Sequence record: NZ_CP024444.1
Length of the DNA stretch: 64,000 bases
From: a plasmid
Direction: 5' to 3' (one strand)
This document shows positions 13,578 through 46,824 of the stretch, piece after piece; position 1 is the stretch's first letter; every line of letters begins with the position of its first letter. A model generated the notes under the pieces. That model did not search any database. It was not told where the DNA came from and saw only the letters and a program-made list of their open reading frames with translations. The position numbers and the translations under genes were made by a program.

Positions 13578-13623
13578 TTAGACCAAATGTAGTTTTTGGC
13601 ACCGAACATCAAGTCGGTGCTGA

Positions 13624-17200: not shown

Positions 17201-17222
17201 ATATCAAACCTTACATTCAAAG

Positions 17223-18416: not shown

Positions 18417-18424
18417 ACAAACTC

Positions 18425-19898: not shown

Positions 19899-20011
19899 AG
19901 AATTCGGCCGATCTTCTGAACCGTCCTAGTTTTATCAGAGACAGGTTTACTTGAGTCAGGCAGCATAGCCTGACGGAATTAATGAACAATAGTACATATT
20001 TTCTGCATCTA

Positions 20012-25210: not shown

Positions 25211-25500
25211 TATTTAAAAAACCATGACCACGGCTTTTGGTGGTAATGGTTGCAATCTTTTCAGGCAATCATTCCCACGGCTTTTGGTGGGTATGAGGCC
25301 CTCTTGTCTTAGCTCGGATAGTCAAGGCTGGCAAGTATGAAATGCAGGCAATCGCCTACGGATCATGCGGCTTGATGACTTATCGCGTTAGCAGGAAGTC
25401 AGTAAGACCATGAAGCCGTCAGCGAGTGACAAGAGTAATACTGCCAAGACTGACGTTGCTGGCGTCTTTTTGCCAGCAATCCGCCAAAGTCTTTATCAGT
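25211..25500. repeat. 290-bp GC-rich repeated element, copy 1 (candidate structured ssDNA/RNA element)
   Basis: It is about 97% identical to 27968-28258, non-coding, and contains internal direct repeats (CACCAAAAGCCGTGG twice) and the hairpin GCTGGCgtctttttGCCAGC. Confidence 0.6.
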
Positions 25501-25524
25501 TAAAAAACTAACCTTTGCGCAAAT

Positions 25525-26001
25525 TTATGAATTATCTAAAGTAGCTTTATTGGCTAATAACCGAATTAAATCTTTTAACTCATAATCTTTGTGAGCAATA
25601 GCACCAACCTTAATTAACCCATTCTCAATATGGTATAAATCATAAACAATAGCGTCTGATACCAAAACGGGTTGTTCATCAGGTACATTAATATCAATTA
25701 ATCGGATAACAGGTTCGCTATCATCATCCACGCCAGCCGAACCAAAACGTTCTGCACTCACAATAAAAGAAACATCGAAACCATCTAGCCAAAGTTCAAA
25801 TAAAAGACTTGCCGGGATATCACGACTACCTTTTTCATAATTGGCATACGTGGATTGGGCAATCGCTAATCGCTCATAAACAGATTTAGCCGTATAACCT
25901 AACCTTAACCGTTCTTGCTTTAATCGCTCACCGATAAACTTGAACGGATATTTTTTAAATTCAGCATCAATCTTTGCCATAAGTTGTTCTTGGGGGTTCA
26001 T
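25525..26001 (-). CDS. XRE-family (Cro/CI-type HTH) transcriptional regulator
   Basis: 158 aa with an N-terminal HTH (IGERLKQERLRLGYTAKSVYERLAIAQSTYANYEKG). Its own upstream region lacks the conserved promoter module but keeps the TAGCGATAGCTTGATATAG motif. Confidence 0.65.
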   Translation of the reverse strand: MNPQEQLMAKIDAEFKKYPFKFIGERLKQERLRLGYTAKSVYERLAIAQSTYANYEKGSRDIPASLLFELWLDGFDVSFIVSAERFGSAGVDDDSEPVIRLIDINVPDEQPVLVSDAIVYDLYHIENGLIKVGAIAHKDYELKDLIRLLANKATLDNS

Positions 26002-26902: not shown

Positions 26903-27799
26903 TTAAGCGGCTATGGGTTGTTTCTTCTGCGACCAATTTTCTAAGATGTAATTAACTGCTTTTTGGGCGTCCGCTGAAGCTTTGAAGATGGCGCGTTTGT
27001 CAGCTTTTAGCACTTGTAACCATGATTTTAAATAGCTTGCATGGTTGGTTAGTGTGGTTTCTAAGCATCCCATTTCAGCGCATAAAAAGCTTGCGCCTAG
27101 TTCTGCTACAAGTTCCTCCCGAGCGTATGCGGTATCACCGAATTTTTTACCGTATTGGCGGTTTAATCGTTTTTCTGCACCCGTGCTGTGGACTAGCTCA
27201 TGTCCAAGCGTCGCAAACTGTTCATCTAGGTTTACAAAGTCGCTTGCATTCGGCATGCATATCGTATCGATGTAGGGTTTATAACAAGCTGAATTGTAAC
27301 CGTATTCAATTTTTACGTCGGTATTTGCAAAGATGGTTTTTGCGGTTTCATTCTCTGCAATGGGTGTTAACGTTTCGTCTTCATCAGGGGTGATTGCGCT
27401 AATATCGCCATCCATTTGGCTAATGTTAAACACACAAAAACTATTTAAAAATGGGATGGTTTCGATGTCACCCTCTTTGTTTTCTTTCTCAATGACATTG
27501 TAATATGCTAGGCGTACCGATTTTGCACCTTTTTTAACCTGTAAGTTTTTGGCTTGGGCTTGCTTGTAGGTCATCCATACATTGTATTTATAATCGCTGT
27601 TAATCATGGCTTTGGCTAAGATTAGACGATTAACGCCTTTGTAGAGTTCACCTGTTGAGCCATTGACGCCACCGAAAATGTTGGTAACCGGACGGGTTTT
27701 CCAGCCTTTTTTCCATTGTGGTAAATCAGTTTCAAGAAGTTCAATCATTGCATTGGTTACTTCTTGGTACATATCGATTTTAGTAGCTGATTTTGTCAT
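26903..27799 (-). CDS. ardC: ArdC-like antirestriction protein (N-terminal ssDNA-binding domain plus zincin-like metalloprotease domain)
   Basis: N-terminus MTKSATKIDMYQEVTNAMIELLETDLPQWKKGW and the HExxH motif (LGHELVHSTGAE) match ArdC. The true start is the ATG at 27797-27799, which follows an AAAAGGA RBS. The ORF track extends upstream through the leader. Confidence 0.8.
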   Translation of the reverse strand: MTKSATKIDMYQEVTNAMIELLETDLPQWKKGWKTRPVTNIFGGVNGSTGELYKGVNRLILAKAMINSDYKYNVWMTYKQAQAKNLQVKKGAKSVRLAYYNVIEKENKEGDIETIPFLNSFCVFNISQMDGDISAITPDEDETLTPIAENETAKTIFANTDVKIEYGYNSACYKPYIDTICMPNASDFVNLDEQFATLGHELVHSTGAEKRLNRQYGKKFGDTAYAREELVAELGASFLCAEMGCLETTLTNHASYLKSWLQVLKADKRAIFKASADAQKAVNYILENWSQKKQPIAA

Positions 27800-27967: not shown

Positions 27968-28258
27968 ATTAACAACCATGACCACGGCTTTTGGTGGTGA
28001 TGGTTGCAAGCTTTTCAGGCAATCATTCCCACGGCTTTTGGTGGGTATGAGGCCCTCTTGTCTTAGCTCGGATAGTCAAGGCTGGCAAGTATGAAACGCA
28101 GGCAATCGCCTACGGATCATGCGGCTTGATGACTTATCGCGTTAGCAGGAAGTCAGCAAGACCATGAAGCCGTCAGCGAGTGACAAGAGTAATACTGCCA
28201 AGACTGACGTTGCTGGCGTCTTTTTGCCAGCAATCCGCCAAAGTCTTTATCAGTTTAA
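27968..28258. repeat. 290-bp GC-rich repeated element, copy 2
   Basis: Near-identical to 25211-25500. It is followed by about 700 bp without a convincing ORF (28260-28945). Confidence 0.6.
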
Positions 28259-29624: not shown

Positions 29625-30557
29625 TTAGGCGCGTGAGAGTAAAGCTGGTGTGTTTTGCTCAAATGGCGTCACGATGTAGCTAACGTTGCCATTAAAATCA
29701 GCACTACCAATGCATGATAACGGCTTACCAATGAAATTGTCTTTAATCGGTCTGCCTTTGGCGTCACTGGTAACCGCCTGTACCAATAAGATGGTATCAA
29801 AGTTTTCGCTATTCATGCCAAGCTTGACCACTTGGTAGAACAGTTTGGCATCGGGTTTGCTAGTTGAGCTTGCCTGTAAAAAATCACCGACCTTTAATTG
29901 CTCGTTGTATTGGTTTTCTACCATATCCAAGCTTAGGGTGAGCTGCTTGTAAACTTCAATCAAGGCTTCAAACAAGTCAGCCGGGTTATCAAAATGGCAA
30001 GCACTGCTTTGGTTAAATACGGCAATACCGATAGGGCGTTTACCGTCATAAGCCACAATCATCATGATACTAGCGTTCAAGTAGCTTAAAATTACATCGG
30101 TCCAGGTGGCGTTGAATTTTTCTTTGACCAGTGCGCGACGTCCCTGTACCAATTGATTGCTTTCAAAGTTGTTGCGTGACTCGTTATCGTCGACGACAAG
30201 TTTACCCTTTGGGCTTAATTGGTTGTAGGCAACTTGGGCTTGCTTGATGGTAAATTGGTCAATGTATTTGACATACTGACTAATTTCTTCAATGGTGGTT
30301 ATCATGTCAGGATAAAACAAGGTATTTAGGTTTTTAAGCGGCTGCCCGGTGGGTACGTGCATCTTAGACTGGTTGTCGTGCGTTCTAATCACAGTAAAAG
30401 GTGGGGTCAGTAGTGTGCCTTTGCTGTGGATTTTGCCGTCATCATTGACCAGCGCATTGTGCCCAGCTTTGCTTTCAGCCATCCAGCTGCCCAGCATCAG
30501 CTTATGATTTTTACTGTATTTGAAGTTATCAATAATAGCGATTAGGGTGTTTTTCAT
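29625..30557 (-). CDS. family B paralog (unknown function; motifs GTLLTPPFT, IMxxFA, QVGD, IRCIAxD)
   Basis: 310 aa. It shares conserved blocks with 31896-32939, 33051-34037, 36738-37736, 38502-39515 and 44536-45495. Confidence 0.55.
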   Translation of the reverse strand: MKNTLIAIIDNFKYSKNHKLMLGSWMAESKAGHNALVNDDGKIHSKGTLLTPPFTVIRTHDNQSKMHVPTGQPLKNLNTLFYPDMITTIEEISQYVKYIDQFTIKQAQVAYNQLSPKGKLVVDDNESRNNFESNQLVQGRRALVKEKFNATWTDVILSYLNASIMMIVAYDGKRPIGIAVFNQSSACHFDNPADLFEALIEVYKQLTLSLDMVENQYNEQLKVGDFLQASSTSKPDAKLFYQVVKLGMNSENFDTILLVQAVTSDAKGRPIKDNFIGKPLSCIGSADFNGNVSYIVTPFEQNTPALLSRA

Positions 30558-30848
30558 GATGGTTATCCTTTTGGTTGGGGTTATGGTGTCGAGCCTATCT
30601 CGTTTCCATGTACTTATAATAACGCTTTAACCGTGTATAGTCAAGCGGTTTAACCGTTTATATACAAGCTATTCGACGGATGGCTGGCGCAGGCGCGATG
30701 TGTGTTAACCCACACTCCCCCATACATAAGCTCTTATAGCACTAGCTATCGCTTGAATTAGATCAGCTCGCCTGTCCAATACCCACCGATGCGATGGGCA
30801 TAAAAAAACTTGCTAGGGTTAACTAGCAAGTCTGTTGTTTGGGTGGGC

Positions 30849-31607
30849 TTATGCTAAGGGACGTTTTTTGCTCTTGGATTTATCATTTTTACGGCATTCA
30901 TTTAATGCCACAAAACTTTTAGCAAGGGTTAGGATGCCTTCTTTATATACTTTCCAAAAATCTAAGGCATCGAATTCCATTCGGGCTATCTCGCTACTGC
31001 TAAAATTTTCCCATTCTTCGATGGTGTGGCATTTACAGCCGATACGGATTTTGTCATTCATCAAGCTGATAAACCACTGATAATCATATAAACACAATAC
31101 CGGATAAGGTAGCTTGGCGAAGGTGATATTTGCACCACGAAAAATGGCTTGTTCAATGTCGCATTGGGTGAAGTCGGTTTGTTTCAATGATGCGTTGGTA
31201 AAGTTGGTATTAATGGTATTGGCATTGGTAAAAATTGAGCAATCAAGGTTACAGCCATCAAGATGGGTTAATTCTAGGTTGCTATCCGTAAAGTTACAAT
31301 TGCTAAGGTTGGCTTGATAAAAATAAGCTTGGCGTAAATCTGCGTTGGTAAAATTTACCCGACGTCCTTTTACATTGGTCATGTTGGTTTGGCATAAGTT
31401 AGCATTTTCAAAATTGGCATTGCTGATATCGCAGTTAATAAGGCTTGCACCGAATAAATTTGCACCGCTTAGGTTTGCACCTGTTAAATCAAACCCTTTT
31501 AAGTCCATGTCTTTTAAGTCGATGTTGCGTAAGTCGGCTTTAACTAGGGTGTCTAAATCAAGTGTGATAGTCGATTTGTTGTATACATGCTTGATGGTGA
31601 TAGCCAT
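30849..31607 (-). CDS. pentapeptide-repeat protein with conserved C-terminal RIGCxCH domain
   Basis: 252 aa with tandem A(D/N)LxX pentapeptides (ANLSGANLFGASLINCDISNANFENANL...) and the C-terminus ...WFISLMNDKIRIGCKCHTIEEW. Confidence 0.75.
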   Translation of the reverse strand: MAITIKHVYNKSTITLDLDTLVKADLRNIDLKDMDLKGFDLTGANLSGANLFGASLINCDISNANFENANLCQTNMTNVKGRRVNFTNADLRQAYFYQANLSNCNFTDSNLELTHLDGCNLDCSIFTNANTINTNFTNASLKQTDFTQCDIEQAIFRGANITFAKLPYPVLCLYDYQWFISLMNDKIRIGCKCHTIEEWENFSSSEIARMEFDALDFWKVYKEGILTLAKSFVALNECRKNDKSKSKKRPLA

Positions 31608-31654
31608 GAGAGTATTCCTTTTGGTTGGGTGATGGTAGCGAGCCTATCTCGTTT

Positions 31655-31700
31655 CCATGTGCTTATAATAACGCTTTAACCGTGTATAATCAAGCGGTTT
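31655..31700 (-). promoter_or_regulatory. representative copy of the conserved sigma70-type promoter of the array (-35 TTGATT, 17-nt spacer, -10 TATTAT) bracketed by CGGTTAAACCG-like sites
   Basis: On the minus strand the sequence reads CGGTTAAACCGCTTGATTATACACGGTTAAAGCGTTATTATAAGCACATGG. The -10 is at 31663-31668 and the -35 at 31686-31691. The same block recurs upstream of about 35 genes with at most a few substitutions. Confidence 0.55.
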
Positions 31701-31895
31701 AACCGTGTTTTTACCCATTTTCCGATAAACGGTAAAAGCGTTTTTCGGGTCGGCTGACACGTTTCCCTCCAGGTAAGAATGTTTTTTTGATATAGCGATC
31801 GTTTGATATAGGCCATCACGCACGCCCAAACAGCGAGCCAAAAAAAACGCCTTACTATCAAGTAAAGCGTTGGGTGGGTGGGTCAAGGCTTATCG

Positions 31896-32939
31896 CTAAA
31901 TACCGTATTTGGACTTAAAAGTTTCAGTCGGAAAGTTGGTCATGACCTTGTCATGTTTGGCAGTCACCATGATTTGTGTATTAACGACAGTCACAAAACA
32001 TTCAATCGGTGGTGTGATGTATGCGCCTTGTTTTGGCATAGTGGTCGCTAACATGGGGTTGTCGGCATCTTCAACAAAACCACTAATACCACGGATGATT
32101 AACGTTTGACCACCATAAAAATCATCGTTGACCACATCAATCACTTCATAGTTTTGACATAAGCCCATTAATAGCCATTTTGAATAAGCACTGCTATAAC
32201 AAATGATATCACCCACCTGAAGTGACGGGTTTGATTGGGTGTTAAGTGATGGCTTGATAGCATGACCAAGTTCGACATATAAATCTGCCATTAATTTTAA
32301 AATCAAGTTTTGACCTTTGTATTCAATTACGCCACGATGGGTAAACAACACAAGCCCACGATGGGTACTAGCGGTGTTATAGGCAAATACCATAAACTCA
32401 CCATCACGGTAGACGCTTAACAATTCGCTATCAGCATAGTCAAGGTCGGTACAGATGTAGTTTTGGCGAGCAAGGTACAATGGGTCGTTTAAAAATGCGT
32501 TGGGGTCTTGGGGGTGTTGGGCAATATCAAGCACCGCTTTGTCAGTGGCTTTGTAGGCATCATGGAATGAATTGAGCATATTTTGGTCAAGGGTTTGGAC
32601 GTATTGTTCCATCTTAGTTTTGCAATCATATACCACATGGTAACTGCTCACCCATTCACCTTTATAAAAGGATGGATATTTACCACTATTGGGGTTTTCC
32701 ATCACCCAAATGGCGGTTTCTTTGCTGTATTTAATCTCGCTATTGGGTAAAAACATCGCTTTGGTTACGATAAAGCCGTTAGTGCCGTTTTGTCTGATTA
32801 ATGGCTTGATGCTATCAATGCGGTCTTGGATTTCATCAATCAGTTGGGCGTGGTCATGGCTTGTAATCACGCGCTTAGTAAGGTCGTAAAAACGTGGGAT
32901 TGATGTGTTTTGTGGTTTGAGTAAAACGATATCGCTCAT
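31896..32939 (-). CDS. family B paralog
   Basis: 347 aa with the shared motifs (LPNSE..., MVFAYN, QVGDII, IIRGISG). Confidence 0.55.
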   Translation of the reverse strand: MSDIVLLKPQNTSIPRFYDLTKRVITSHDHAQLIDEIQDRIDSIKPLIRQNGTNGFIVTKAMFLPNSEIKYSKETAIWVMENPNSGKYPSFYKGEWVSSYHVVYDCKTKMEQYVQTLDQNMLNSFHDAYKATDKAVLDIAQHPQDPNAFLNDPLYLARQNYICTDLDYADSELLSVYRDGEFMVFAYNTASTHRGLVLFTHRGVIEYKGQNLILKLMADLYVELGHAIKPSLNTQSNPSLQVGDIICYSSAYSKWLLMGLCQNYEVIDVVNDDFYGGQTLIIRGISGFVEDADNPMLATTMPKQGAYITPPIECFVTVVNTQIMVTAKHDKVMTNFPTETFKSKYGI

Positions 32940-33050
32940 GGGGTTATCCTTTTGGTTGGGGTCGGATGCGAGCCTATCTCGCTGTCCATGAGAGTATTAT
33001 AACGGTTTTACCGTGTATAATCAAGCGGTAAAACCGTTTTTTATGGTTAA

Positions 33051-34037
33051 TTAAGCCACTGCCGGATGATGGTTTGGGTGGGTACCATAAACATCAAGCA
33101 CATTTAAGGCGTGTCTTGTCCCTGCCAGTCCATTAAATATCACCACACCATCCGCGCCTGTGTACAAGCAGATATCAAGGGGTGCGCCAATATACTTACC
33201 GCGAATAGGTTGGAACTTTTTATCAAACATAATCGCTTGCATCTTGCCTGTCTGCATCTGCCCACTATTTGGCGTATCAAGGTGGGTGACTTCATAAAAA
33301 TGGGTATGAGAGCATTCGTCCATGGCATTGGCTAAAATCGTACCTATCTCAATTGGCTTGCTGTCATTGGCGTGGCTTAATGCCTTTTGGGTATCGACGT
33401 GGTCTTCAATCGCATCATATAGGTGCGCCATGACCAATAGAATACTATTCCACCCGTGATAAAAATAGGTGGCATGGGGCAAGCACAAGGCATAGCCTTT
33501 TTTGTGTTCTTCGGTGGTGGCAAACAATAAAATATCATCATCAAGCCAACTGCCAATTAACTCAACATAGCGAGCATTAAAATAGCTTTTTACGCCCTCT
33601 AAGCGATTGCTATACAATGGGTGCAAGTGGCTGTGGATGTGGTAGCCTTGCTTTTGGACAATGGCTTTGGTCTGTTCGCTTGCATCCTTGAGCCTTTCTT
33701 CAAAGTCAGTGATTTGCTGACGGTCACGCTCAAGCACGAATTGACGAGCCGACCACAACTCCCCAAAAAAGTAACTAGGCGTGGTGTATTCAGCATCAAG
33801 TAACGGGCAATCATTGCGTGACGTGAGCACATAACGCCCATTGTTATTGACCGATAGCAAACAAGGCGGCTGAAATAGCGTACCATCACAAAAATAGACG
33901 CCATCTTGAACGTGGCTTTTTTTGGTGACCCGTTGAAAAGGTTGTGAGCAAGTTTTGCTTAGTCCGCGCATTTCTTCGCATAGGGCTAGATGGTCGGTGC
34001 TGTGTACGATACTTTTCATCAAAACATATAAATTCAT
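33051..34037 (-). CDS. family B paralog (second gene of a two-gene unit)
   Basis: 328 aa. It has no full module of its own; the module lies upstream of the preceding 38-aa peptide gene. Confidence 0.5.
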   Translation of the reverse strand: MNLYVLMKSIVHSTDHLALCEEMRGLSKTCSQPFQRVTKKSHVQDGVYFCDGTLFQPPCLLSVNNNGRYVLTSRNDCPLLDAEYTTPSYFFGELWSARQFVLERDRQQITDFEERLKDASEQTKAIVQKQGYHIHSHLHPLYSNRLEGVKSYFNARYVELIGSWLDDDILLFATTEEHKKGYALCLPHATYFYHGWNSILLVMAHLYDAIEDHVDTQKALSHANDSKPIEIGTILANAMDECSHTHFYEVTHLDTPNSGQMQTGKMQAIMFDKKFQPIRGKYIGAPLDICLYTGADGVVIFNGLAGTRHALNVLDVYGTHPNHHPAVA

Positions 34038-34113
34038 GGCAATTATCCTATTGGTTTTAAGTGGTGGGTGGGCGGTAAGTGAGCCTTTCTCAACTAACCG
34101 TTAATCAGCATTA

Positions 34114-34230
34114 TTATTTTTTAAGCACGCGTTTAACACTGGGGGCGACTTTGCGTTGAGCCGTTCCCAAATAGCGATACATCATTAAAGACAATGGGTA
34201 AATAAAAGCACTGATTTGTAAAAAATTCAT
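34114..34230 (-). CDS. 38-aa hydrophobic peptide (MNFLQISAFIYPLSLMMYRYLGTAQRKVAPSVKRVLKK)
   Basis: Not in the ORF track. An ATG follows the conserved module and AAAAGGA RBS, and the peptide has a single transmembrane-like segment. Confidence 0.4.
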   Translation of the reverse strand: MNFLQISAFIYPLSLMMYRYLGTAQRKVAPSVKRVLKK

Positions 34231-34519
34231 GGCCGTTCCTTTTGGTTGGGTGATGGTAGCAAGCCTATCTCGCTGTCCATGTAGTTATAATAACGCTTTA
34301 ACCGTGTATAATCAAGCGGTTTAACCGTGTTTTTACCCATTTTCCGATAAACGGTAAAAGCGTTTTTCGGGTCGGCTGACACGTTTCCCTACAATTTACT
34401 ATCCTTGTACTAGCTATGGCTTGATGTAGATCAGCTCGCCTGCCTAACGCCTGCCAAAATCGGTACAAAAAAAGCCACAATACGATGATTGTAGCTTTGG
34501 GTGGGTGGGCGTGATGCGA

Positions 34520-35266
34520 CTAGGCGACTTGCTTTTTAGATGGCGTGATTTTTTTAAGCTGTTGCTCACTAAACGCGGTAGCGATGGCTAAAATTTCCTC
34601 TTTGAATTCTTCCCAAAACTCAATGGCGTAGTCATCCATATCAATGATTTCGTTACCATCAAAATTACGCCATTCTTCAATGCTATAACATTTACAGCCA
34701 ATGCGTAGCATATCGTCACATACGCTGATAAACCACTCATAGTTATACAGGCAAAGCAATTTTTTGGGTAATACGGTGCAATCTAACACGGTATAGTCAA
34801 AAACCGTTCGACGAATATCCGACTTCATCAAATTAGCTTCAGTTAAATTGGCACAGGTAAATTGCGTGGTGTCCAAATTGGTGTTGTTAAAGACCACCCA
34901 TTGAAAATTTGAACGGTATAAATTGGATTTGCTTAAATTCACATTGTCAAAAATTGCATGTTTAAAGTCGGCATTGGAAGCCACCACCATTGCCATATTC
35001 GCATTACTAAAGTCGGCATTGCCTGCCCTTGAGCCATTTAAATTGGCGTGAGTCATGTTGGCATGACTAAAATTAGCTTCAAACAGTTCGCAGTCGGTCA
35101 TAATAGCCCGTGATAAATTGGCACCGCTAAAATTTGCCTTGGATAAATCAACACTGGTAAAAATAGCACCAGCTAAGTTTTGACCGCTAAAGTCATAGCC
35201 TTGCAGGGTATCAGCATCGATAACTAGGTCGTCTTTCTTGCCAAAAAATTTAATGGTAATACTCAT
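34520..35266 (-). CDS. pentapeptide-repeat protein with conserved C-terminal RIGCxCY domain
   Basis: 248 aa with pentapeptide tandems and the C-terminus YEWFISVCDDMLRIGCKCYSIEEW. Confidence 0.75.
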   Translation of the reverse strand: MSITIKFFGKKDDLVIDADTLQGYDFSGQNLAGAIFTSVDLSKANFSGANLSRAIMTDCELFEANFSHANMTHANLNGSRAGNADFSNANMAMVVASNADFKHAIFDNVNLSKSNLYRSNFQWVVFNNTNLDTTQFTCANLTEANLMKSDIRRTVFDYTVLDCTVLPKKLLCLYNYEWFISVCDDMLRIGCKCYSIEEWRNFDGNEIIDMDDYAIEFWEEFKEEILAIATAFSEQQLKKITPSKKQVA

Positions 35267-35604
35267 GGGTGTGTCCTTTTGGTTGGGGGTCGGAATTGAG
35301 CCTATCTCGTTTCCATGATGCTATTATAACGGTTTTAGCGTGTTTAATATAACGGTTTTAGCGTTTATTTATCGATTTTCCGATAAACGGTTTTAACGTT
35401 CACCACGCCCACCACCCACCTACCCCGACCCTTAGTCATGCTTGCCTTAGAGTTCGCTTGCGCTAGGTGCATCCTTGCTACCGGATAAAACCATCGCCAA
35501 AAAAAATGCTATACAGGTGTATAGCATTGACTGGTGTGACTAAGCTTCATTAGACTAGACGGCATCAGGCATGTCATGACTGCCGTATGGGTTGGCATAG
35601 TCAG

Positions 35605-36432
35605 TTAGCTGACTTGTTTTTGTCCCTGAAAGATGCTCACGCCCATACCGACATCGTCATGTTTTTGTTGATATAAGCCGTCTTTAAATTGGTAGTCTTT
35701 TTCATACGAATGGTAGAAAGCACAGGCGATTTCGAGTATTTCATATTTATGCCAACGCCAAAACGATAAGGCTTCATCGCCCATATTCTCAATTTGCTCT
35801 GCGTTAAAGTCTTTCCATTGTTTGATGGTATGACACTGGCATCCAATACGGATGGTATCGGCACAAATAAAAATTGGCCAGTTGTAATGATACAAAAACA
35901 TCACCTTAAAAGGAAATAAGGCGGTCATGATGTTTGTTCCCCAAAAAATAGCGTAGCGGATGTCTGCTTGCTGAAAGTCGGCACAGCTAATAGTGGCGTT
36001 AAAAAAATTGGTTGCTAGTAAATCTGCCTTATCAAAACTTGCTTGCACAAGACTTGCGCCCGTGAATTGGGCATACTGACAGTTGGCATCATGAAAATTA
36101 CTAAAATTAAAATTGGCATGACTGGCATGAATGCTTTTGAGATTGGCGTGTTTAAAGCGTCCCTTCAGTAGCGTTGCGCTAGTAAAATTAGCCCCTTGTA
36201 AATCAGCGTTTTCAAAATTGACATGATTTAACGTCGCCTTATCAAAACGCGCATACTGTAAATTGCATCCGCTAAAATTGGCATTGGTTAAGTCCATGCC
36301 GATAAAGTCAGCACCTTGTAAATTGGCACCGCTAAAATCATGCCCCACAAGACTGTCGCCCTCGATGGTTGCAAGGATGGCTTTTGATTTGAAGGAATTA
36401 TGCGTAAGGTAGCTTTGAATTTCGATGGTCAT
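35605..36432 (-). CDS. pentapeptide-repeat protein with conserved C-terminal RIGCQCH domain
   Basis: 275 aa with pentapeptide tandems and the C-terminus ICADTIRIGCQCHTIKQW. Confidence 0.75.
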   Translation of the reverse strand: MTIEIQSYLTHNSFKSKAILATIEGDSLVGHDFSGANLQGADFIGMDLTNANFSGCNLQYARFDKATLNHVNFENADLQGANFTSATLLKGRFKHANLKSIHASHANFNFSNFHDANCQYAQFTGASLVQASFDKADLLATNFFNATISCADFQQADIRYAIFWGTNIMTALFPFKVMFLYHYNWPIFICADTIRIGCQCHTIKQWKDFNAEQIENMGDEALSFWRWHKYEILEIACAFYHSYEKDYQFKDGLYQQKHDDVGMGVSIFQGQKQVS

Positions 36433-36737
36433 ACTTTTATCCTTTTGGTTGGGTGTTGGAATTGAGCCTTTCTCGTTTCCATGATGCTATTATAACGGTT
36501 TTAGCGTGTTTAATATAGCTGTTTAACCGTGTTTTTACTCATTTTCCGACGAACGGTAAAACCGTTTTTAGGTTGGCTGGCACGTTTCCCCGTACTTAAT
36601 GACCCTTGTACTAGCCATATCTTGAGATATGTACTAGCCATATCTTGAGATAGCCGATCGGCACCGACTGCCGTTTGTTAGCCATCAGCCACAAAAAAGC
36701 ATGGTGTGGTTACCATGCTTGGGCATATCAAGTCATC

Positions 36738-37736
36738 TTAGCGTGGGACGGCTTCAACTACCCTTAATCGGGCATTGTACAGCAAAAGCGACTGCTGACT
36801 ATCTACTTTTAAATAACCGTTGACGTGTTTGGCAATACAAGCAATCTCACTGCCTAAAAATGCATTGGTGATTGGATTGTTTAGGCTGTCATAGGCAATA
36901 CAGCGCAGTTTAATGGCGTTGCCTTGTTTGCTGATGTTCTCGCCTACTTGGGTGATTTGGTAGTATTGGCTCGGGTTGGTGTTGTTAAACCGTTCAAGTC
37001 TTACAATACTACCGACACCGATATCTAGCATATTTTCCGGTTGTTGGTTGTTGTAAAGAAATAATTTGGCGGTTTCACAAAAACCATAGAGTTTGCTCAT
37101 GACGTCTAAAATGCTATTAAGTCCATAGCTTAAATACATACTGTTGTCGCCATACAGCGCATAGCCTTGTGAATAGCTTTCTTTGGTGGGCGTGGTGCAA
37201 GCAAATAGCATGATGGTATCATTGGCATAACTGCCGATAAGTTCAGCTTGCGTATTTTGAAAATACTGCTTGGTGAATGCTAAACGTGGGGCATGCAGTG
37301 GGTGAGCTTGGCTTTGCTCGCTCACCTGGTTGTTTTGTGCCAAGTTGCGCACGTCTTTACTGGCGTTTTCATACGCAAATTGAAAGCATCCGATTGCGCT
37401 TAAATCATCACATTTGATACGCAACAGGGCAATTTCTTCGCTCAAAAAGCGGTGATTTTTTTGTAGCTCGGTACAATCGATTAAATACTCGCCATTGATG
37501 GGTTGTACGGTGTAAAAATCTTCTTCCCCCACGACATTACTACGCTCAAGGGTTGTGATAGGCTGTAACAAGGTGGGCGTGGTGACAAAACCGGATGCAG
37601 TTTTTTCGATGGTGGCACGGTGCTGTTTCTCAAGCTTGAATAACTGCTTAATGAGTGCCGAATGATTATCGCTTGCCATGACAAGACGCATGACTTGTTC
37701 AGGGGTGATAGGGGCTTGGGTGCTATGGCTTGGCAT
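36738..37736 (-). CDS. family B paralog
   Basis: Start reassigned to MPSHSTQAPI (ATG at 37734-37736, after AAAAGGA). The ORF track extends 95 codons upstream through the module. Confidence 0.55.
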   Translation of the reverse strand: MPSHSTQAPITPEQVMRLVMASDNHSALIKQLFKLEKQHRATIEKTASGFVTTPTLLQPITTLERSNVVGEEDFYTVQPINGEYLIDCTELQKNHRFLSEEIALLRIKCDDLSAIGCFQFAYENASKDVRNLAQNNQVSEQSQAHPLHAPRLAFTKQYFQNTQAELIGSYANDTIMLFACTTPTKESYSQGYALYGDNSMYLSYGLNSILDVMSKLYGFCETAKLFLYNNQQPENMLDIGVGSIVRLERFNNTNPSQYYQITQVGENISKQGNAIKLRCIAYDSLNNPITNAFLGSEIACIAKHVNGYLKVDSQQSLLLYNARLRVVEAVPR

Positions 37737-38045
37737 AATCTTTTTCCTTTTGGTTGGGGTCGGATGTGAGCCTATCTCACAATCCATGTGCTTATAATAA
37801 CGCTTTAACCGTGTATAATAAAGCGGTATTAGCGTTTTTCTACCCATTTTCCGATGAACGGTAAAAGCGTTTTTAAAGTCGGCTGGCACGTTTCCCTGTA
37901 CTTTAGGGGGTTTACCTGATTTAGTGATAGCTTGGGCTAATACTGGGTTAGTAGGCTTGGTCGCAGCGGTATGCCAATCGGCATTAAAAGCTTGGGCAAC
38001 AAAAAACCCATGCACTGGCACGGGTTTGTTTGGGTGGGCGTGGGG

Positions 38046-38165
38046 TTACATTCTGGCACAGCGAAACACATAATAAATCACGGCAATGAATAATACCAAA
38101 ACAACGTTGCTGTCAAATAAAGACATAATGGCATTAAAGGCTTCGAGTTGTGATGAATATTGCAT
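38046..38165 (-). CDS. 39-aa hydrophobic peptide (MQYSSQLEAFNAIMSLFDSNVVLVLFIAVIYYVFRCARM)
   Basis: Not in the ORF track. It has its own full conserved module (38170-38300) and one predicted transmembrane helix. Confidence 0.4.
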   Translation of the reverse strand: MQYSSQLEAFNAIMSLFDSNVVLVLFIAVIYYVFRCARM

Positions 38166-38501
38166 ATTTTTTCCTTTTGGGTTGGGTGTAGGAATTGAGC
38201 CTTTCTCGTTTCCATGATGCTATTATAACGGTTTAACCGTGTATAATCAAGCGGTATTAGCGTGTATCTATGGTTTTCCGACGAACGGTAAAACCGTTTT
38301 ATCGGGCAAATCCTAGCCCGACCGCCCTAAAATTCATGTTATTTACTTGCGTTAGTGATAGTTTGACTTAGGGTGCACCAGCCACAGATGCACTAGCCGC
38401 GCCTGTTGCCCAGCTTGCCAGCAAAAAAACCACCAACCGATTTGGCGGTCAGTGGTCGGGCAGAATTTACTAGCTTGGATAGCCGCTAAAATTGCCTGTG
38501 C

Positions 38502-39515
38502 TTAGTGTGCGTTAGGCTCATACTTGGCAAGTTCAGTAATGCCACCAAGCGTACTGCCAGCAAATGGCATTAGGTAGCAAGCAATATAGCCTTCACGATA
38601 TAGGTGGACATACGCATTCATTTTGGGCGAAATCATACTATTTTTAACAGGCAGGGATTTGTCGTCATGCAAGATAGCGCGTAGGGTTATCATAACGGCT
38701 TGTTTGTTTAATGTGGGACTTACCTCTACCACCCGGTAGTAACGATAACAGCGGATGTTGAGATTGCGAAAATCTTCAAAAATATCACCCACCTGTACCA
38801 GCTTTTGAAATGGCGCATTTTCAATAATCACCGCAGCTGCGATGACTTGGTACAATCGGCACATGACGGTAAAACAATGTTGCAACCCACTAAAAAACTC
38901 GATGCCATCAGCATGGCATAGGGTGAAACCAGGGTAATCATGATTGGCGGTCATAAATACCATAATCGATCCATCCAAATAGCTACCCACCAAATTGGTA
39001 ACATTCATATTTTGCGCTGAAAAATAACGTTCAGCAATTTTTAGTCGTCCATCATGCAAGGTATCTAGCACCGACGTCACTTCGCTGGCATGATTGTTCT
39101 GAATTGCCATTATGGTTGCATCATACGCCTTGTTATACGCATCTTTAAACTCTTGGATGGCGTTATGGTCGGTTTCTTTCACATATTTTTTAGCCTGTGC
39201 CAACGACTCAAAGTAACGATACGGTTTAGAGTCGATGCGACTTATTGAGTACATATACGCTCGCCAGTCCGTCTTGCCCATCCATTGTTTTTTAATGTTG
39301 TCACGGTTTAGGGTGAATGGTGGCAGTAATAACGTACCGCTACAGACATAATCACTCCCCTGTTTGGTAAGATTGTAATCATACGCTTGGGTGGCACTTT
39401 GCAAGTCTTCAATCAATTCATCATGGTTGCGACTGGAAAATAAAGCGACACACAGGTCAACTAAGGTAGCAAAACCTTTGGTGGTTGCCGCGGCTTGGGC
39501 AATGGCAGTAGACAT
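38502..39515 (-). CDS. family B paralog
   Basis: Start reassigned to MSTAIAQ (ATG at 39513-39515). Shared motifs are GTLLLPPFT, IMVFMTA and QVGDIFED. Confidence 0.55.
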   Translation of the reverse strand: MSTAIAQAAATTKGFATLVDLCVALFSSRNHDELIEDLQSATQAYDYNLTKQGSDYVCSGTLLLPPFTLNRDNIKKQWMGKTDWRAYMYSISRIDSKPYRYFESLAQAKKYVKETDHNAIQEFKDAYNKAYDATIMAIQNNHASEVTSVLDTLHDGRLKIAERYFSAQNMNVTNLVGSYLDGSIMVFMTANHDYPGFTLCHADGIEFFSGLQHCFTVMCRLYQVIAAAVIIENAPFQKLVQVGDIFEDFRNLNIRCYRYYRVVEVSPTLNKQAVMITLRAILHDDKSLPVKNSMISPKMNAYVHLYREGYIACYLMPFAGSTLGGITELAKYEPNAH

Positions 39516-39879
39516 AATTTTTATCCTTTTGGTCGGGGTCGGACGCAAGCCTATCTCGCTATCCATATAGCTATAATAACGGTTTAACCGTGTATAATCA
39601 AGCGGTTTAACCGTGTTTTTACCCGTTTTCCGATAAACGGTAAAACCGTTTTTCGGGTCGGCTGACACGTTCCCCCGTACTTTAGGATGCTTTTTTTGAT
39701 GTAGTAATAACTTGGTTTAGATCGGTTCACTCGCCCATCGACGACAACTTGCCAGCAACAGGCAATAAAAAACCCACTGTCATGTGACAGTGGGGGGATT
39801 TTCCCAACCACGAGAAAACTAGAAAATTCGGTAATATTTAGCTTGCCAGCATCGCCAGCTGTGGACTTATCGCTTCAAT

Positions 39880-40269
39880 TTAGTTAAACGCTTGGGCAAT
39901 CTTAGTGCCACGGGTGTTAATTTCTTGTTCGATGTCGCTAACTATCTTGGTAATTGATACATTGCCACCGTTATTAAAGACACGCAGATTGTCTTTTAAC
40001 TCGTCGAAACTACTTTCAATATAAAATTTGCCATCTTGCCAAGCGATGTCAATGTTGAACGCTTTATTGCCAACAATCACCAAAACGTGCGATTTATAAC
40101 GCCCTGTACGTGTCTTAACCGTTTTTCGCTCAATTTTAAATACGACGTTCACATAACTGCCGTTTGGCAAACACACGGTAGAGTCAACCAGGTTTGGGTT
40201 ATCAATGAGTTTACCCTTCACTTTGATTTTGCGTAGGCTGTCGATACTAAAAACTGGAATAGTTGACAT
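39880..40269 (-). CDS. hypothetical protein
   Basis: The true start MSTIPVFS follows the RBS. The track's upstream 28 codons are leader translation. Confidence 0.45.
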   Translation of the reverse strand: MSTIPVFSIDSLRKIKVKGKLIDNPNLVDSTVCLPNGSYVNVVFKIERKTVKTRTGRYKSHVLVIVGNKAFNIDIAWQDGKFYIESSFDELKDNLRVFNNGGNVSITKIVSDIEQEINTRGTKIAQAFN

Positions 40270-40525
40270 ACATTTTCCTGTGGGTTGGGTGCCGGAATTG
40301 AGCCTATCTCGTTTCCATGATGTTATTATAACGGTTTTAGCGTGTAAATGCAAGCGGTTTAACCGTTTATTTAATAATATTTAGTACGCCAGCTCATTGA
40401 CGTATCAAGCATGGATTGATAACACCCGTATTTACTAGGTCAGTATGATAATTAATTGCGTTACCACCATGCCAAAAATTAAAAGGACTGCAATAGCAGT
40501 CCTAGTGTTTGATTAGATGCGATGA

Positions 40526-41044
40526 CTATAACGACATGCCGAGTGCATCATGTACGCTGTTAGTGATGATTTTCATCATGTCGGGGTTTTTGCTAATTTC
40601 TCTTAGGATGTTGCTAACCATGGTTTCCTGTAAATCGATTTCAGGATGCTCACCATCATATAAGATAAATTGCAAATCGGCATCATTTTGCAAGGCTTCA
40701 GGGATTTCAAAACGGATGATATTGTCTTCGTTTAACTCCACCATAGAAGTACCCACTGGAACATAGCTCAATTCATTGACGTCACGTAACATATCGTCGA
40801 TTAGCGAATTGGTAAGGTCTATGAATGGGATAAAATCAGGAAGGGCTTGTACACACGCCACAAAATGAATCTCTATACCTGACTCGGTGACAAGGTTTAA
40901 CTCCATAATACGACGGGCAATGACATGGTCAAAACCATACGGGCGTGCTTCAGGAATGATACCTTTAAAGCGAGTGTAGCTGTCAATTGACGTCACAGTC
41001 AGTTTGGCGTTGCTTAAATTGTCGATGATGTCTTGGATAGTCAT
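40526..41044 (-). CDS. family C paralog (unknown function)
   Basis: 172 aa, colinear with 49150-49680 (...LTVTSID...HPEIDLQE...). Confidence 0.5.
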   Translation of the reverse strand: MTIQDIIDNLSNAKLTVTSIDSYTRFKGIIPEARPYGFDHVIARRIMELNLVTESGIEIHFVACVQALPDFIPFIDLTNSLIDDMLRDVNELSYVPVGTSMVELNEDNIIRFEIPEALQNDADLQFILYDGEHPEIDLQETMVSNILREISKNPDMMKIITNSVHDALGMSL

Positions 41045-41344
41045 ATTTTTTCCTTTTGGTTGGGTGTAGGAATTGAGCCTTTCTCGTTTCCATGTAGTTA
41101 TAATAACGGTTTAACCGTGCATAGTCAAGCGGTTTAACCGTGTTTTTACCCATTTTCCGACGAACGGTAAAAGCGTTTTTCGGGTCGGCTGGCACGTTTC
41201 CCCATACGTTACGATGCTTTTTTTGCATTAGTGATAACTTGATATAGGATGTTGCCGAGCGTACCCATAAGGCATGCCAAACCTACCTGTCAAAGCAAAA
41301 AACCCTAGTCTTTGGCTAGGGTCTTAATTGTGGGGTTTAAGTGC

Positions 41345-41719
41345 TTAGGCGGCATTTAGGTAGGTTGCATAGATTTGGCTTAAGGTGGTTGGCTTAAAGT
41401 CTAAGTCAAGTTTCATGCTGTCGATTTCACAAAGTTCAACCAAGCTAATATAACCAAGCTCGCTAGGCCAATTGTGCAAACGCACTAAACCGAATGCTTG
41501 ATATTGTGGCTCTTCCATGTCTTTTTCAGTGATGAACCAATGGCAAGTATAACCGTTTGGTGTTTCAACCATGTAATGCAAGTGTGCCACCGCTTCATCG
41601 CCTAGCCCGTCTTGCTCATAGGTTTTTGGCATGGTGTCAAAGATTTCGTCAATTTTGGCTTTTTGCTCTTCAGTCAGTGCGTTTAATTGGCGTGGTGGTA
41701 CATAAGCTGAATTTTTCAT
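41345..41719 (-). CDS. hypothetical protein
   Basis: About 124 aa from MKNSAYVPP. The module lies upstream. Confidence 0.45.
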   Translation of the reverse strand: MKNSAYVPPRQLNALTEEQKAKIDEIFDTMPKTYEQDGLGDEAVAHLHYMVETPNGYTCHWFITEKDMEEPQYQAFGLVRLHNWPSELGYISLVELCEIDSMKLDLDFKPTTLSQIYATYLNAA

Positions 41720-42009
41720 AATCTTTTCCTTTTGGGTTGGGTTTAGGAATTGAGCCTTTCTCGTTTCCATGTGCTTATAATAACGGTTTTAGCGTGTATA
41801 ATCAAGCGGTTTTAGCGTTTATTTGATGATTTCCCGACGAACGGTAAAAGCGTTTTTTGGGAATGACTGACCTGTTCGCCCCATATGTCAGGGTGTTTTT
41901 TTTGCATTAGTGATGGCTTGATTTAGACCAGCTGGCTTACCGCCAAACGTTGGCGACAAAAAAACCTTGCAAGCTGTGCAAGCAAGGTCTTAATAATTTC
42001 ACTGGCTGG

Positions 42010-42717
42010 CTAGAATGTTGACATTTTAGCAAAGGCAATCATGCGCTTTTTGTAGTCGTGCCAAAAATCCAGCGCGTCACTGCTCATTTTATCAATGTCT
42101 TCATCGCTAAAGTTTTCCCATGTTTCGACAAGGTGGCATTGGCAACCAATTCTTAACATGCCATGGCGTGCGCTGACAAACCATTGATAGCCATATAGCA
42201 TCATCACATCACCATCGATATGAGCATACTCTAGTCGTGAGCCGTTGAAGATGGTTGTATCAATATTGGTATTGTCCAATTTGGCATGTTTAAGCTCACA
42301 ATCTGCCAAGCTAGTATGATGCAAATTTGCAAAGTCAAAATTAGCGATGCGTAGGTCGCAGTCGGTTATCAGGGCTTTGGTAAGGTTTGCTTGAAAGAAA
42401 TTGGTTTCCATCAATTCGGCATGATGGGCGGATGCATGCAATAAATTGGCTTTGCTAAAGTCGGCATTACTGGCTTTGGCGTTGGTTAATGATGCGCCCA
42501 CCAAGTTTGCATTGCTAAAGTTTGCCCACTCGATACAACTATCATTGAACTGTGCGCCTGTTAAGTTTGCACCGCTAAAATTGGTCTTGCTTAAGTGCAA
42601 GTTACTTAAATTGGCATTTTGTAAGTCCAAGTTGCTTAAGTCTGCGCCTGCAAGCGTATCAAGCTCTAACGTGATAATTGGGTTGCCTGTGTTTTTATGC
42701 TCGATAGTAATCGCCAT
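42010..42717 (-). CDS. pentapeptide-repeat protein with conserved C-terminal RIGCQCH domain
   Basis: The true start is MAITIEHKNTG. It has pentapeptide tandems and the C-terminus WFVSARHGMLRIGCQCHLVETW. Confidence 0.75.
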   Translation of the reverse strand: MAITIEHKNTGNPIITLELDTLAGADLSNLDLQNANLSNLHLSKTNFSGANLTGAQFNDSCIEWANFSNANLVGASLTNAKASNADFSKANLLHASAHHAELMETNFFQANLTKALITDCDLRIANFDFANLHHTSLADCELKHAKLDNTNIDTTIFNGSRLEYAHIDGDVMMLYGYQWFVSARHGMLRIGCQCHLVETWENFSDEDIDKMSSDALDFWHDYKKRMIAFAKMSTF

Positions 42718-43011
42718 GATTTTTTTCCTTTTGGTTGGGTGTTGGAATTGAGCCTTTCTCGTTTCCATGTGCTTATAATAACGCTTTAACCGTGTATAAT
42801 CAAGCGGTTTTAGCGTTTATTTGGGGGTTTTCCGACGAACGGTAAAACCGTTTTTAGACTCGGCTGGCATGTTTCCCCGTACCTAAGGGGGTTTATCTGA
42901 TTTAGTGATAACTTGATGTAGTCCATCACGCTCGCCTGTCGACGACAACTTGCCAGCAGGCAATAAAAAACCCACCTAATGACAAGGTGGGTATTATCCG
43001 GTAGTAATCAA

Positions 43012-43713: not shown

Positions 43714-44208
43714 TTAAACTTTGGCTTTTGCCTTAACTAAAAAGGCTTCAGGGATGCCATCATCTTGTTGTACCATTGGTTGCTGATTAGCTTGTACCAT
43801 TGGTTGGCTATTGGCAACAGGTTGGCTTGCATACTCATCTTGGTCAGGGAATGGGATATTGGGTCGTCCACCACCGCTACTGCCTAGCATTTGCAAAGAG
43901 TCGCCATAGATTTCAGTCACATAGCGTTCAATGTTGTTGCTGTCCGTGTATTTGCGGTTGCGTAGTTCACCCTCAATAAAAACGCCAGCACCTTTTTTTA
44001 GGTAATTTTGGGCGATTTCTGCGAGTCGGTTGAACAACACCACGCGATGCCATTCGGTACGCTCTTTTTTCTCTTGGGTAGTCTTGTCTGTCCAAGTTTT
44101 CGTAGTAGCCATTGAAATGGTTGCGCACACGCCACCACTTGGCAATTGACGTACATCAGGGTCAGCACCTAAGTTGCCGATTAAAATTACTTTGTTTACA
44201 CCTTTCAT
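43714..44208 (-). CDS. ssb: single-stranded DNA-binding protein
   Basis: The OB-fold N-terminus (MKGVNKVILIGNLGADPDVRQLPSGG...WHRVVLFNRLAEIA) and a Gln/Pro-rich tail ending DDGIPEAF are present. The start is the ATG at 44206-44208. Confidence 0.85.
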   Translation of the reverse strand: MKGVNKVILIGNLGADPDVRQLPSGGVCATISMATTKTWTDKTTQEKKERTEWHRVVLFNRLAEIAQNYLKKGAGVFIEGELRNRKYTDSNNIERYVTEIYGDSLQMLGSSGGGRPNIPFPDQDEYASQPVANSQPMVQANQQPMVQQDDGIPEAFLVKAKAKV

Positions 44209-44535: not shown

Positions 44536-45495
44536 TTAAGCTGCCAATTTGTCATCAATTGATGGTGATTGAGTCCGTAATACCGCATATCTTAGATTAT
44601 TATTGACCGTAGCATGGGCTTCATAGCGTTTGTCTTCGCTGTTATAAGTCACAAAGCAAGGAATATCGCCTGTTAAGTATTTACCACGGATTGGCGTGCC
44701 GTGGGCGTCAAAAGCAATACAGCGGATAGTAATTTCACCGCCTAGCTTGGTTGATAGCATATTAAGTTGGGTCACTTCAAAATAACGACGTGGTCTATCG
44801 CTATCATACTTAACGTTTTCAAAAATAGTGCCCAGCTCGATAGCATGAATTGGCTTGTCAACCTTGCGCAAATTATCAGATACCGCATAATAAATAAATC
44901 GCATAGCTCGAAGAATTTTATTTAGCCCACTAAAAAACTCCATGCCGTTTTGGTGAAATACTACTAGCCCTGTCTTGCCCTGTTCATAGCAGGCAAACAA
45001 CATGATATCACCGCCCATGTAGCAAGCCTCAAGCTCAACCTGTTGCGATTTCATGTGCTGACAAGCGAATTCATAACGGGCTTGGTAAAGTGGAAGATTT
45101 TTGCTGTTGGCATCGATTTGGTTATGCTCGGCAATGGCTCTGACGTTTTCGTGACTAATCACATCATAGCCCAGTGAAAAAATCTGCATGTTATTCCCAT
45201 TCTTGATGAATTTTTTACAGTCTGCTAGTTTCCGCATACGCACTTTATAAGTGGGGTGATCAATTTGCGGTAAGCATAACGATGGGTCATCACAAGTAAT
45301 TTGCCATTCGCCATCATTATTTTTATGTATGGTGACCGCAGGGGTTAACAGGGTTGCGGCACAAGTGTACCCAACACCATCTTTTTTATTTTTAAAGACG
45401 TTGGGGTGTTTTTCACTTAGCGAATTTAACTGCTCATGTAGGTCATGATGGTTGGTGCTGGTAACCACTAATTTAACAATGTCTGAAAGTTGCAT
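44536..45495 (-). CDS. family B paralog
   Basis: 319 aa with motifs CAATLLTPAVT, IMLFACY and IRCIAFDAHGTPIRGKY. Confidence 0.55.
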   Translation of the reverse strand: MQLSDIVKLVVTSTNHHDLHEQLNSLSEKHPNVFKNKKDGVGYTCAATLLTPAVTIHKNNDGEWQITCDDPSLCLPQIDHPTYKVRMRKLADCKKFIKNGNNMQIFSLGYDVISHENVRAIAEHNQIDANSKNLPLYQARYEFACQHMKSQQVELEACYMGGDIMLFACYEQGKTGLVVFHQNGMEFFSGLNKILRAMRFIYYAVSDNLRKVDKPIHAIELGTIFENVKYDSDRPRRYFEVTQLNMLSTKLGGEITIRCIAFDAHGTPIRGKYLTGDIPCFVTYNSEDKRYEAHATVNNNLRYAVLRTQSPSIDDKLAA

Positions 45496-46512: not shown

Positions 46513-46824
46513 TGGAATTTTCCTTTTGGTCGGGGTCGGAATTGAGCCTATCTCGTTTCCATGTGTCTATAATAACGCTTTAACCGTGTATAATCAAGCG
46601 GTTTAACCGTGTTTTTACCCATTTTCCGACGAACGGTAAAAGCGTGTTTTACATCGGCTGGCGCGGTTTGCCCATATTTTAGGTTTTTATGATATAGCGA
46701 TGTCTTGGGTTAGCGTCCTCTCGCCTGCCAATTTACAAGCAAAAATAAACCCACTGTCATTTGACAGTGGGGGGTTTTTCCCAACCACGAGAAAGCTGTT
46801 TGATGCGTTTAGGTAGGCAGCATC

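Follow-up and report, generated by a model that had tools for sequence, protein, structure and literature searches.

Four pentapeptide-repeat paralogs of a Moraxella megaplasmid share an unnamed C-terminal domain with phage proteins

Introduction

Pentapeptide-repeat proteins are very common in phages and other mobile elements, while to our knowledge almost none outside the Qnr/MfpA/AlbG group has a known role. Four such proteins are encoded on the minus strand of a 64,000-nt stretch of a Moraxella megaplasmid (sequence record NZ_CP024444.1). This whole stretch is referred to here as the window, and all coordinates are given in it. The genes occupy 30849-31607, 34520-35266, 35605-36432, and 42010-42717 (paralogs 1 to 4, respectively). 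An earlier note, made from the sequence alone, had described them as proteins with a novel C-terminal domain that might bind zinc, and had suggested that they inhibit restriction or other DNA-binding proteins by mimicking DNA.

The best described pentapeptide proteins are Qnr, MfpA, AlbG, McbG, and EfsQnr. They resemble the four proteins in their right-handed quadrilateral beta-helix, similar length, cytoplasmic location, and mildly acidic character, and Qnr also occurs on mobile elements. In contrast, the four proteins score far below the cutoffs of these families, lack QnrB-type loops, and carry an alpha/beta domain of ~65 aa in place of the C-terminal dimerisation helix of Qnr. They also occur as four divergent paralogs together, surrounded by establishment rather than resistance genes.

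Ocr of phage T7 and ArdA of ColIb-P9 and Tn916 offer a functional comparison. Both are elongated and act by stoichiometric binding, and ArdA is found in leading regions together with ssb. They are early-expressed genes of mobile elements, as the four paralogs would also be. However, the folds are unrelated, and Ocr carries a net charge of about -24 per 100 aa compared with -1 to -5.5 in the four proteins. Pentapeptide proteins are not known to have anti-restriction activity.

For the arrangement of the genes, the nearest precedent is the leading region of the IncN plasmid pKM101, in which repeated upstream CUP elements bound by the plasmid repressor ArdK precede several establishment genes (PMC6289460, citing Delver and Belogurov 1997). 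The Moraxella locus likewise has repeated conserved upstream elements before several genes. It differs in having 36 copies, against a handful of named CUP elements on IncN plasmids, in the additional conservation of a leader and Shine-Dalgarno sequence, and in that every gene is monocistronic. The element sequences are unrelated, and the repressor is only a candidate.

The four proteins belong to the phage family represented by phrog_31567 and phrog_37032, with which they share the C-terminal domain. Its members include Caulobacter phage Jess A gp021, Rheinheimera phage Barba gp044, and proteins of the Acinetobacter phage Acba series. The likeness extends to PHROG profile matches with E down to 1e-24, Foldseek template modelling (TM) scores of 0.8-0.85, and the same layout, with the solenoid first and the domain at the very C-terminal end. 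As a rule, the listed phage members are shorter and have fewer coils, and they mostly occur once per genome, whereas the Moraxella plasmid carries four long paralogs.

Results and discussion

Four proteins with a predicted beta-helix and a common C-terminal domain

Paralog 1 (252 aa) consists of an N-terminal cap, ~30 pentapeptide repeats, the C-terminal domain (C-domain; residues ~170-234, 30906-31100), and a basic tail, KSKKRPLA. Paralogs 2, 3, and 4 (248, 275, and 235 aa) also combine a pentapeptide beta-helix with the C-domain, which lies at 34565-34759, 35710-35904, and 42013-42207, respectively. Paralog 2 has the variant motif RIGCKCY and ends in PSKKQVA, paralog 3 has an extra tail of ~35 aa ending in GQKQVS, and paralog 4 has no tail. 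The start of paralog 4 was placed at the ATG at 42717; the longer open reading frame (ORF) from 42768 was rejected, as its added stretch merely translates the upstream repeat.

All four proteins matched Pfam pentapeptide families with E between 1e-28 and 1e-35, reaching 97-110 bits for PF00805 (cutoff 20.2) and 61-120 bits for PF13599 (cutoff 38). Each contains 30-31 in-register pentapeptide units, equal to ~7.5 coils, and the centre residue is hydrophobic at 30-32 of 35-36 repeat positions. End-to-end identity among the paralogs is 36-41%, the conserved C-terminal stretch included. The C-domain itself (~65 aa; LYxYxW...RIGCxC[HY]...W.NF...I..M...A..FW...K) could be aligned in all four with a mean pairwise identity of 47%. 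A hidden Markov model (HMM) of the domain, run against the six-frame translation of the window, identified exactly four ORFs (E 2e-37 to 3e-41), and the next best match had an E of only 0.49. The coordinates of the four ORFs, the 42717 start of the fourth, the combination of repeats and C-terminal domain in each, and the count of four paralogs in the earlier note were thus all recovered.

The full-length AlphaFold2 model, built from an alignment of the four paralogs only, is a regular beta-helix with a short strand every 5 residues and a predicted local distance difference test (pLDDT) score of 95-98 over residues 20-150, while its C-terminal part is less certain. Predicted alone from a 69-sequence alignment, the C-domain begins with an antiparallel meander of four strands and continues with three helices, two short ones and then a long one (mean pLDDT 96.9). 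Foldseek matched the model to solved pentapeptide structures with E of 1e-9 to 1e-5, among them synthetic solenoids, HetL, QnrB1, AlbG, MfpA, Np275/276, and the Rfr proteins. The paralogs are taken to be cytoplasmic proteins of two modules, a right-handed beta-helix rod of ~7.5 coils and a compact alpha/beta domain of ~65 aa. Structure prediction, which the earlier note had proposed as a check, therefore bears out the beta-helix. The likeness to Qnr, MfpA, and AlbG holds at the level of the fold but is generic to pentapeptide proteins and not specific to this group, as the family scores fall below their cutoffs.

These scores bear on the idea that the four proteins are topoisomerase interactors of the Qnr/MfpA/AlbG/McbG type, which would protect or modulate gyrase or topoisomerase IV, e.g., during supercoiling of the incoming plasmid or against gyrase poisons. 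The fold is the same, the helix is of similar length, and the overall charge is near that of QnrB1 and MfpA. However, the NCBIfam Qnr model NF033086, which has a cutoff of 240, gave 49.5 and 39.7 bits, and the MfpA model NF000349, with its cutoff of 360, gave 35.1 and 24.3 bits, so that the proteins are not members of either family. The best sequence matches were instead generic cyanobacterial-type and synthetic pentapeptide proteins. The C-domain, which takes the place of the Qnr dimerisation helix, is unrelated to the C-terminus of QnrB1 (hhalign probability 7%), and no QnrB-type loops break the repeat register. A single conserved target is also hard to square with four divergent paralogs, and this role is considered very unlikely.

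A domain family found mainly in phages

No relative of the C-domain was found in Pfam, NCBIfam, or PDB. Word-indexed protein searches with the domain returned only fragments or 38 unnamed proteins, and the family became visible by exhaustive search. Among 1.84 billion cluster representatives (50% identity), HMMER identified 2,206 proteins at E <= 1e-3, of which 369 reached E <= 1e-10. In PHROG, the four proteins and stand-alone homologues matched phrog_31567 and phrog_37032, both of unknown function, and all four matched phrog_31567 with E of 1e-15 to 6e-18. At the level of predicted structure, the same fold was present at the C-termini of phage pentapeptide proteins in BFVD (TM 0.80-0.85).

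The distribution of the domain is strongly tilted towards phages. By tblastn, it was detected in 138 phage records, with hosts including Rheinheimera, Acinetobacter, Vibrio, Caulobacter, Edwardsiella, Aeromonas, and Ralstonia, and in 2 of 72,556 plasmids, namely the Moraxella osloensis plasmid pMOXF1 and a Leptospira plasmid. A viral contig scan with the full-length alignment mostly returned pentapeptide proteins without the domain, which was present in 2 of 57 loci. The search of species-representative genomes with the four-paralog patterns found no relatives. The HMM search of the C-domain that the earlier note had called for upholds its term "novel" only in so far as no named family covers the domain; with 2,206 clusters, mostly of phages and including PHROGs 31567 and 37032, it is an unnamed and uncharacterised yet common phage module and not unique to this plasmid.

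To describe the architecture of the family, the 150 best representatives were surveyed. They carry the domain at the very C-terminal end, and the median number of residues beyond it is 1. Pentapeptide repeats precede it in 68 of the 150 proteins, short N-termini, some of them clearly fragments, in 31, and other N-termini in 51. A good share of these 51 are short or degenerate pentapeptide runs, and other repeat types among them are GNAxVxG hexapeptide-like, CxxC-rich, leucine-rich-repeat (LRR)-like, and WYSGKW repeats. As the domain is fused to several repeat types, the C-domain and not the solenoid is the constant element of the family, and its solenoid partner is interchangeable. Three proteins consist of two repeat-plus-domain units in tandem (homologues P0124, P0125, and P0269), which hints that the solenoid-plus-C-domain unit may normally work as a dimer.

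What is new here is a conserved C-domain that merits its own family definition and groups the four proteins with phage early proteins and not with Qnr/MfpA. Four paralogs on one plasmid are also unusual. A sizeable subset of pentapeptide proteins (>2,000 clusters at 50% identity) thereby shares a confidently folding domain that databases leave unnamed, and the domain provides a concrete handle, a new family to define.

Conserved residues of the C-domain

Column conservation was determined over 153 domain sequences. G190 and W199 are conserved in 100% of them, I189, F202, and W218 in 99%, and I207, M210, and A214 in 98%, followed by C191 with 97%, W178 and K222 with 93%, and D204 with 85%. Position 194 is His in 85% and Tyr in 14%, while the second Cys of "RIGCxCH", C193, remains in only 11%. 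The family signature is W...IGC[QKE]xH...W..F..D..I..M...AL.FW...K at the extreme C-terminus, and the four paralogs share its conserved columns. Most of the conserved residues are hydrophobic and, going by their pattern, probably form the core of the domain.

The Cys/His zinc site raised by the earlier note did not survive this analysis. A CxCH site was rejected on column conservation, since only C191 and H194 are conserved, and with one conserved Cys and one conserved His there is no zinc site within the monomer. A site shared between two subunits may exist.

Surface charge and DNA mimicry

The net charges of paralogs 1 to 4 are -2, -11, -7, and -13, with isoelectric points (pI) of 4.7-6.0. 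Per 100 aa this corresponds to -0.8 to -5.5, compared with -2.8 for QnrB1, -2.7 for MfpA, and -23.9 for Ocr, whose net charge is -28. The comparison with Ocr proposed in the earlier note therefore ended against an Ocr-like charge and placed the proteins near Qnr and MfpA. Net charge per face of the helix ranges from +2 to -4, leaving no strongly acidic face, and ~55% of the residues exposed at i+1/i+2 are polar but uncharged. Identity between paralogs is 16-17% at exposed repeat positions, 56% at the buried centre, and 47% in the C-domain. Each paralog therefore shows a different surface on a conserved scaffold.

That the four proteins are strict DNA-mimic anti-restriction proteins, the idea of the earlier note, is unlikely in light of these values. 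The beta-helix does have the Qnr/MfpA/AlbG fold, the proteins are mildly acidic, and their array also holds ArdC and a single-stranded DNA-binding protein (SSB). Phage homologues moreover adjoin recombination genes, the position in which lambda has gam and ral. Against this stand the low charge and the missing acidic face. The same C-domain is also fused to hexapeptide-like, CxxC, and LRR-like repeats, so that DNA mimicry by a pentapeptide helix is neither a conserved feature nor the defining mechanism of the family. In a published test, the pentapeptide proteins McbG and QnrB were without effect on the exclusion of T7 by BREX (PMC7261183).

Homologues in phage early regions

The phage homologues are located among small early genes. 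In Caulobacter phage Jess A the gene directly follows DNA polymerase I, and in Acinetobacter phage Acba_23 it follows the CI repressor. A metagenomic phage carries it near beta-clamp, primase-polymerase, helicase, and Dam genes, while in a Pseudomonas prophage it lies beside cI/cro. In further phages and prophages it is found between the immunity switch and RecT/NinB, or adjoining ERF/YqaJ. These positions point to an early role, and they leave its direction undecided. The early region of temperate phages is home to genes of host takeover and counter-defence and to exclusion genes.

The four proteins could accordingly act as defence or exclusion factors that shield the plasmid-bearing cell from phages or competing plasmids, like many moron genes next to cI. 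Exclusion genes are also common around the immunity region, which prophage homologues adjoin, and the repeat region weakly matched the Hailong effector HalA, illustrating that pentapeptide modules occur in defence proteins. The HalA score was, however, 31 against a cutoff of 250, and in PADLOC neither the four pentapeptide proteins nor the six-member family interleaved with them had a match at E <= 1e-3. The gene is also present in apparently lytic phages next to replication genes, and ArdC and SSB, which are co-regulated neighbours, serve establishment. A defensive role is thus distinctly unlikely.

A one-directional array of self-contained units

The four genes are part of a one-directional array on the minus strand (24333-61860) of ~40 genes, 36 of which have a cassette. 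These 36 copies, each ~125 nt long, extend over 24384-61784 and are perhaps what is most striking about the window. In each, as read on the minus strand, a palindromic site, ACGGTTAAACCG(C/T), abuts a TTGAYT -35 box, and a second palindromic site lies within the 17-nt spacer before a -10 box of TATTAT or TATAAT. The palindrome ACGGTTAAACCGT occurs twice around the TTGAYT-17-TATTAT promoter. The leader is conserved as well (GGAAACGAGAWAGGCTC...CCAACCAAAAGGA) and had no match in an Rfam search of the array; the distance between its motif and the start codon is a constant 47-55 nt.

The cassette of paralog 1 (31608-31731, minus strand) reads ACGGTTAAACCGC, TTGATT, a 17-nt spacer with the second operator, TATTAT, the GGAAACGAGATAGGCTC leader, and an AAGGA Shine-Dalgarno sequence. 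The cassette of paralog 4 (42718-42841, minus strand) has TTGATT-17-TATTAT, while those of paralogs 2 (35267-35389) and 3 (36433-36555), also on the minus strand, are variants in which the -35 box is weak and the -10 box is TATAAT. A consensus promoter scanner called the promoters of paralogs 1 and 4 and, as a weaker variant, that of paralog 2. Terminator-like hairpins on the minus strand follow paralogs 1 to 4 at 30806-30833, 34471-34498, 35505-35528, and 41966-41982, respectively, and terminators are enriched in the region (42 found versus 16 +/- 4 expected). With its own promoter-operator cassette and terminator, each pentapeptide gene is therefore a self-contained unit.

Clear Pfam matches within the array were limited to three proteins. 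ArdC (ArdcN plus zincin metallopeptidase; 26903-27799) and SSB (43714-44208) are encoded on the minus strand with a cassette of their own, in agreement with the earlier note, which had placed the four paralogs in one array with ssb and ardC. The third, an HTH_3 protein of 158 aa (25525-26001, minus strand), lies inside the array without the standard cassette itself and is a candidate repressor for the palindromic operators, a role suggested by inference only. Paralog families in the array have 6, 4, 3, 2, 2, 2, and 2 members. The largest encodes proteins of 310-347 aa on the minus strand (29625-30557, 31896-32939, 33051-34037, 36738-37733, 38502-39515, and 44536-45495), interleaved with the pentapeptide genes, and matched nothing in Pfam, PHROG, or PADLOC. 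It is a reasonable inference that the array is a conjugative "leading region".

Comparison with pMOXF1

The region shares 97.5% identity with the 248-kb plasmid pMOXF1, whose annotation of all four genes is just "pentapeptide repeat-containing protein". All four are intact and of the same lengths there, with nonsynonymous to synonymous substitution ratios (dN/dS) of 0.23-0.55 based on few substitutions. Type IVB secretion system (T4BSS) genes lie 1.4 kb from the array in pMOXF1, while in the window ~20 kb of cargo flanked by insertion sequences (IS) separates the two. The T4BSS genes of the window (T2SSE-type ATPase, T4SS_TraI, and DotD; 1134-4284, minus strand) are at its left end. Upstream of the T4BSS genes of pMOXF1, at 153.6-188.4 kb, ten of the large ORFs (476-1,498 aa) matched nothing in Pfam at E <= 1e-4. 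The megaplasmid's machinery for conjugation or other functions is largely unrecognisable.

The proximity of the secretion genes raises a further alternative, in which the proteins are exported into the recipient via the T4BSS, or serve plasmid housekeeping or regulation and have nothing to do with host defences. The array shares the window with T4BSS genes, secreted effectors such as PipB/PipB2 and NleL/SopA contain pentapeptide modules, and a short basic tail closes three of the four paralogs. These tails (KSKKRPLA, 30849-30875; PSKKQVA, 34520-34543; GQKQVS, 35605-35625) are similar to each other and could be a secretion or degradation signal. However, the tail is missing from paralog 4 and most homologues, in keeping with the median of 1 residue after the domain, and most family members are phage proteins without a secretion system. 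This alternative is regarded as most improbable.

Proposed role of the four paralogs

The reading favoured here, and held tentatively as somewhat short of an even chance, is that the four paralogs are expressed early and serve establishment or counter-defence as binding or decoy proteins. They would form part of a regulon of ~36 genes, each with a strong sigma-70-type promoter overlapped by palindromic operators, a leader, and a terminator, and entry of the plasmid into a repressor-free cell would set off a burst of expression. Each paralog would then bind a different host protein stoichiometrically, with the divergent solenoid surface as the binding or decoy face. The C-domain would have a shared structural role, e.g., capping, oligomerisation, or docking, and would be neither a zinc site nor, probably, an enzyme. 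A host target that handles nucleic acids, such as restriction, RecBCD-type, or topoisomerase proteins, is plausible and the least supported step of this scheme.

Several observations support an establishment or counter-defence role. The divergence of exposed positions (16-17%) relative to the conserved centres (56%) and C-domain (47%) fits diversified binding surfaces on a conserved scaffold. An early role is indicated by the homologues located in phage early regions by cI/cro, recombination, or replication genes, and the overwhelming occurrence of the domain in phages (138 records versus 2 plasmids) agrees with it. ArdC and SSB within the array, T4BSS genes in the window, and the cassette and terminator of each gene point in the same direction, as do the intact genes (dN/dS < 1 relative to pMOXF1) and the lack of defence matches in PADLOC. 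For the mode of control, CUP/ArdK on IncN plasmids is a documented precedent (PMC6289460).

Other results weigh against this role. The net charge is only mildly negative, and neither McbG nor QnrB relieved BREX exclusion of T7 (PMC7261183). In the literature searched, no paper gave any pentapeptide protein an anti-defence role, none dealt with the C-domain family, and no member was experimentally characterised. No relaxase or origin of transfer (oriT) was located, PLSDB typing (MOB-suite) classified pMOXF1 as non-mobilizable, and a relaxase or coupling protein sought in pMOXF1 was not found, where ten large neighbouring ORFs are without a Pfam match. The near-invariant Cys191 (97%), together with His194 and Asp204 (85% each), could indicate chemistry over a purely structural role. 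As phage early regions by cI also house exclusion and defence genes, the context of the homologues cannot separate counter-defence from defence.

A more specific version, doubtful as a whole, extends the counter-defence role to the entire family. The C-domain would define a large unnamed superfamily of "solenoid rod plus head" proteins, used by phages and a few plasmids as modular decoys soon after entry, in which the head docks on or oligomerises around a common host component and the rapidly diversifying surface of the solenoid sets which DNA-targeting defence of the host is blocked. The four paralogs would then represent four counter-defence specificities in a 36-gene repressor-controlled regulon. 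If counter-defence is correct, the proteins would bring a new structural class into the anti-defence repertoire and help to predict the host range of Moraxellaceae megaplasmids. If it is not, it is still a useful correction that the "novel zinc domain" is a common phage module without a zinc signature. The domain family and the 36-cassette regulon are the parts worth attention, and the plasmid is a tractable system, with four paralogs that each appear from their flanking sequences to be a repressible unit, beside ArdC and SSB.

Other features of the window

The IS-bounded cargo between the T4BSS genes and the array (4588-22701, ~18-20 kb) appears absent from the matching stretch of pMOXF1. It includes genes for a UvrA-like ABC ATPase, NDH-2, an esterase, DUF3422, GFA, and zinc alcohol dehydrogenase, as well as glutamate-cysteine ligase, a ZIP transporter, and cytochrome bd subunits. 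Within the array, a 288-nt direct repeat present twice with 98% identity (25217-25504 and 27971-28258) flanks the segment of the HTH gene, a small gene, and ArdC. The plasmid SSB (43714-44208) ends in ...DDGIPEAFLVKAKAKV and not in the usual acidic DDDIPF-type tip, as a basic segment lengthens its partner-binding tail.

Just beyond the TnpB gene (62143-63249) that closes the array, at 63333-63611, lie three tandem 102-nt repeats, each with the inverted repeat AAAAACTTGCGTTAACGCAAACTTTT. They are iteron-like and possibly represent an origin of replication (oriV), an oriT, or a partition site. A 63-nt element occurs three times (39758-39820, 46735-46797, and 56007-56069) and contains a strong hairpin, CCCACTGTCAxxTGACAGTGGG, followed by a T-run; these elements are probably shared terminators.

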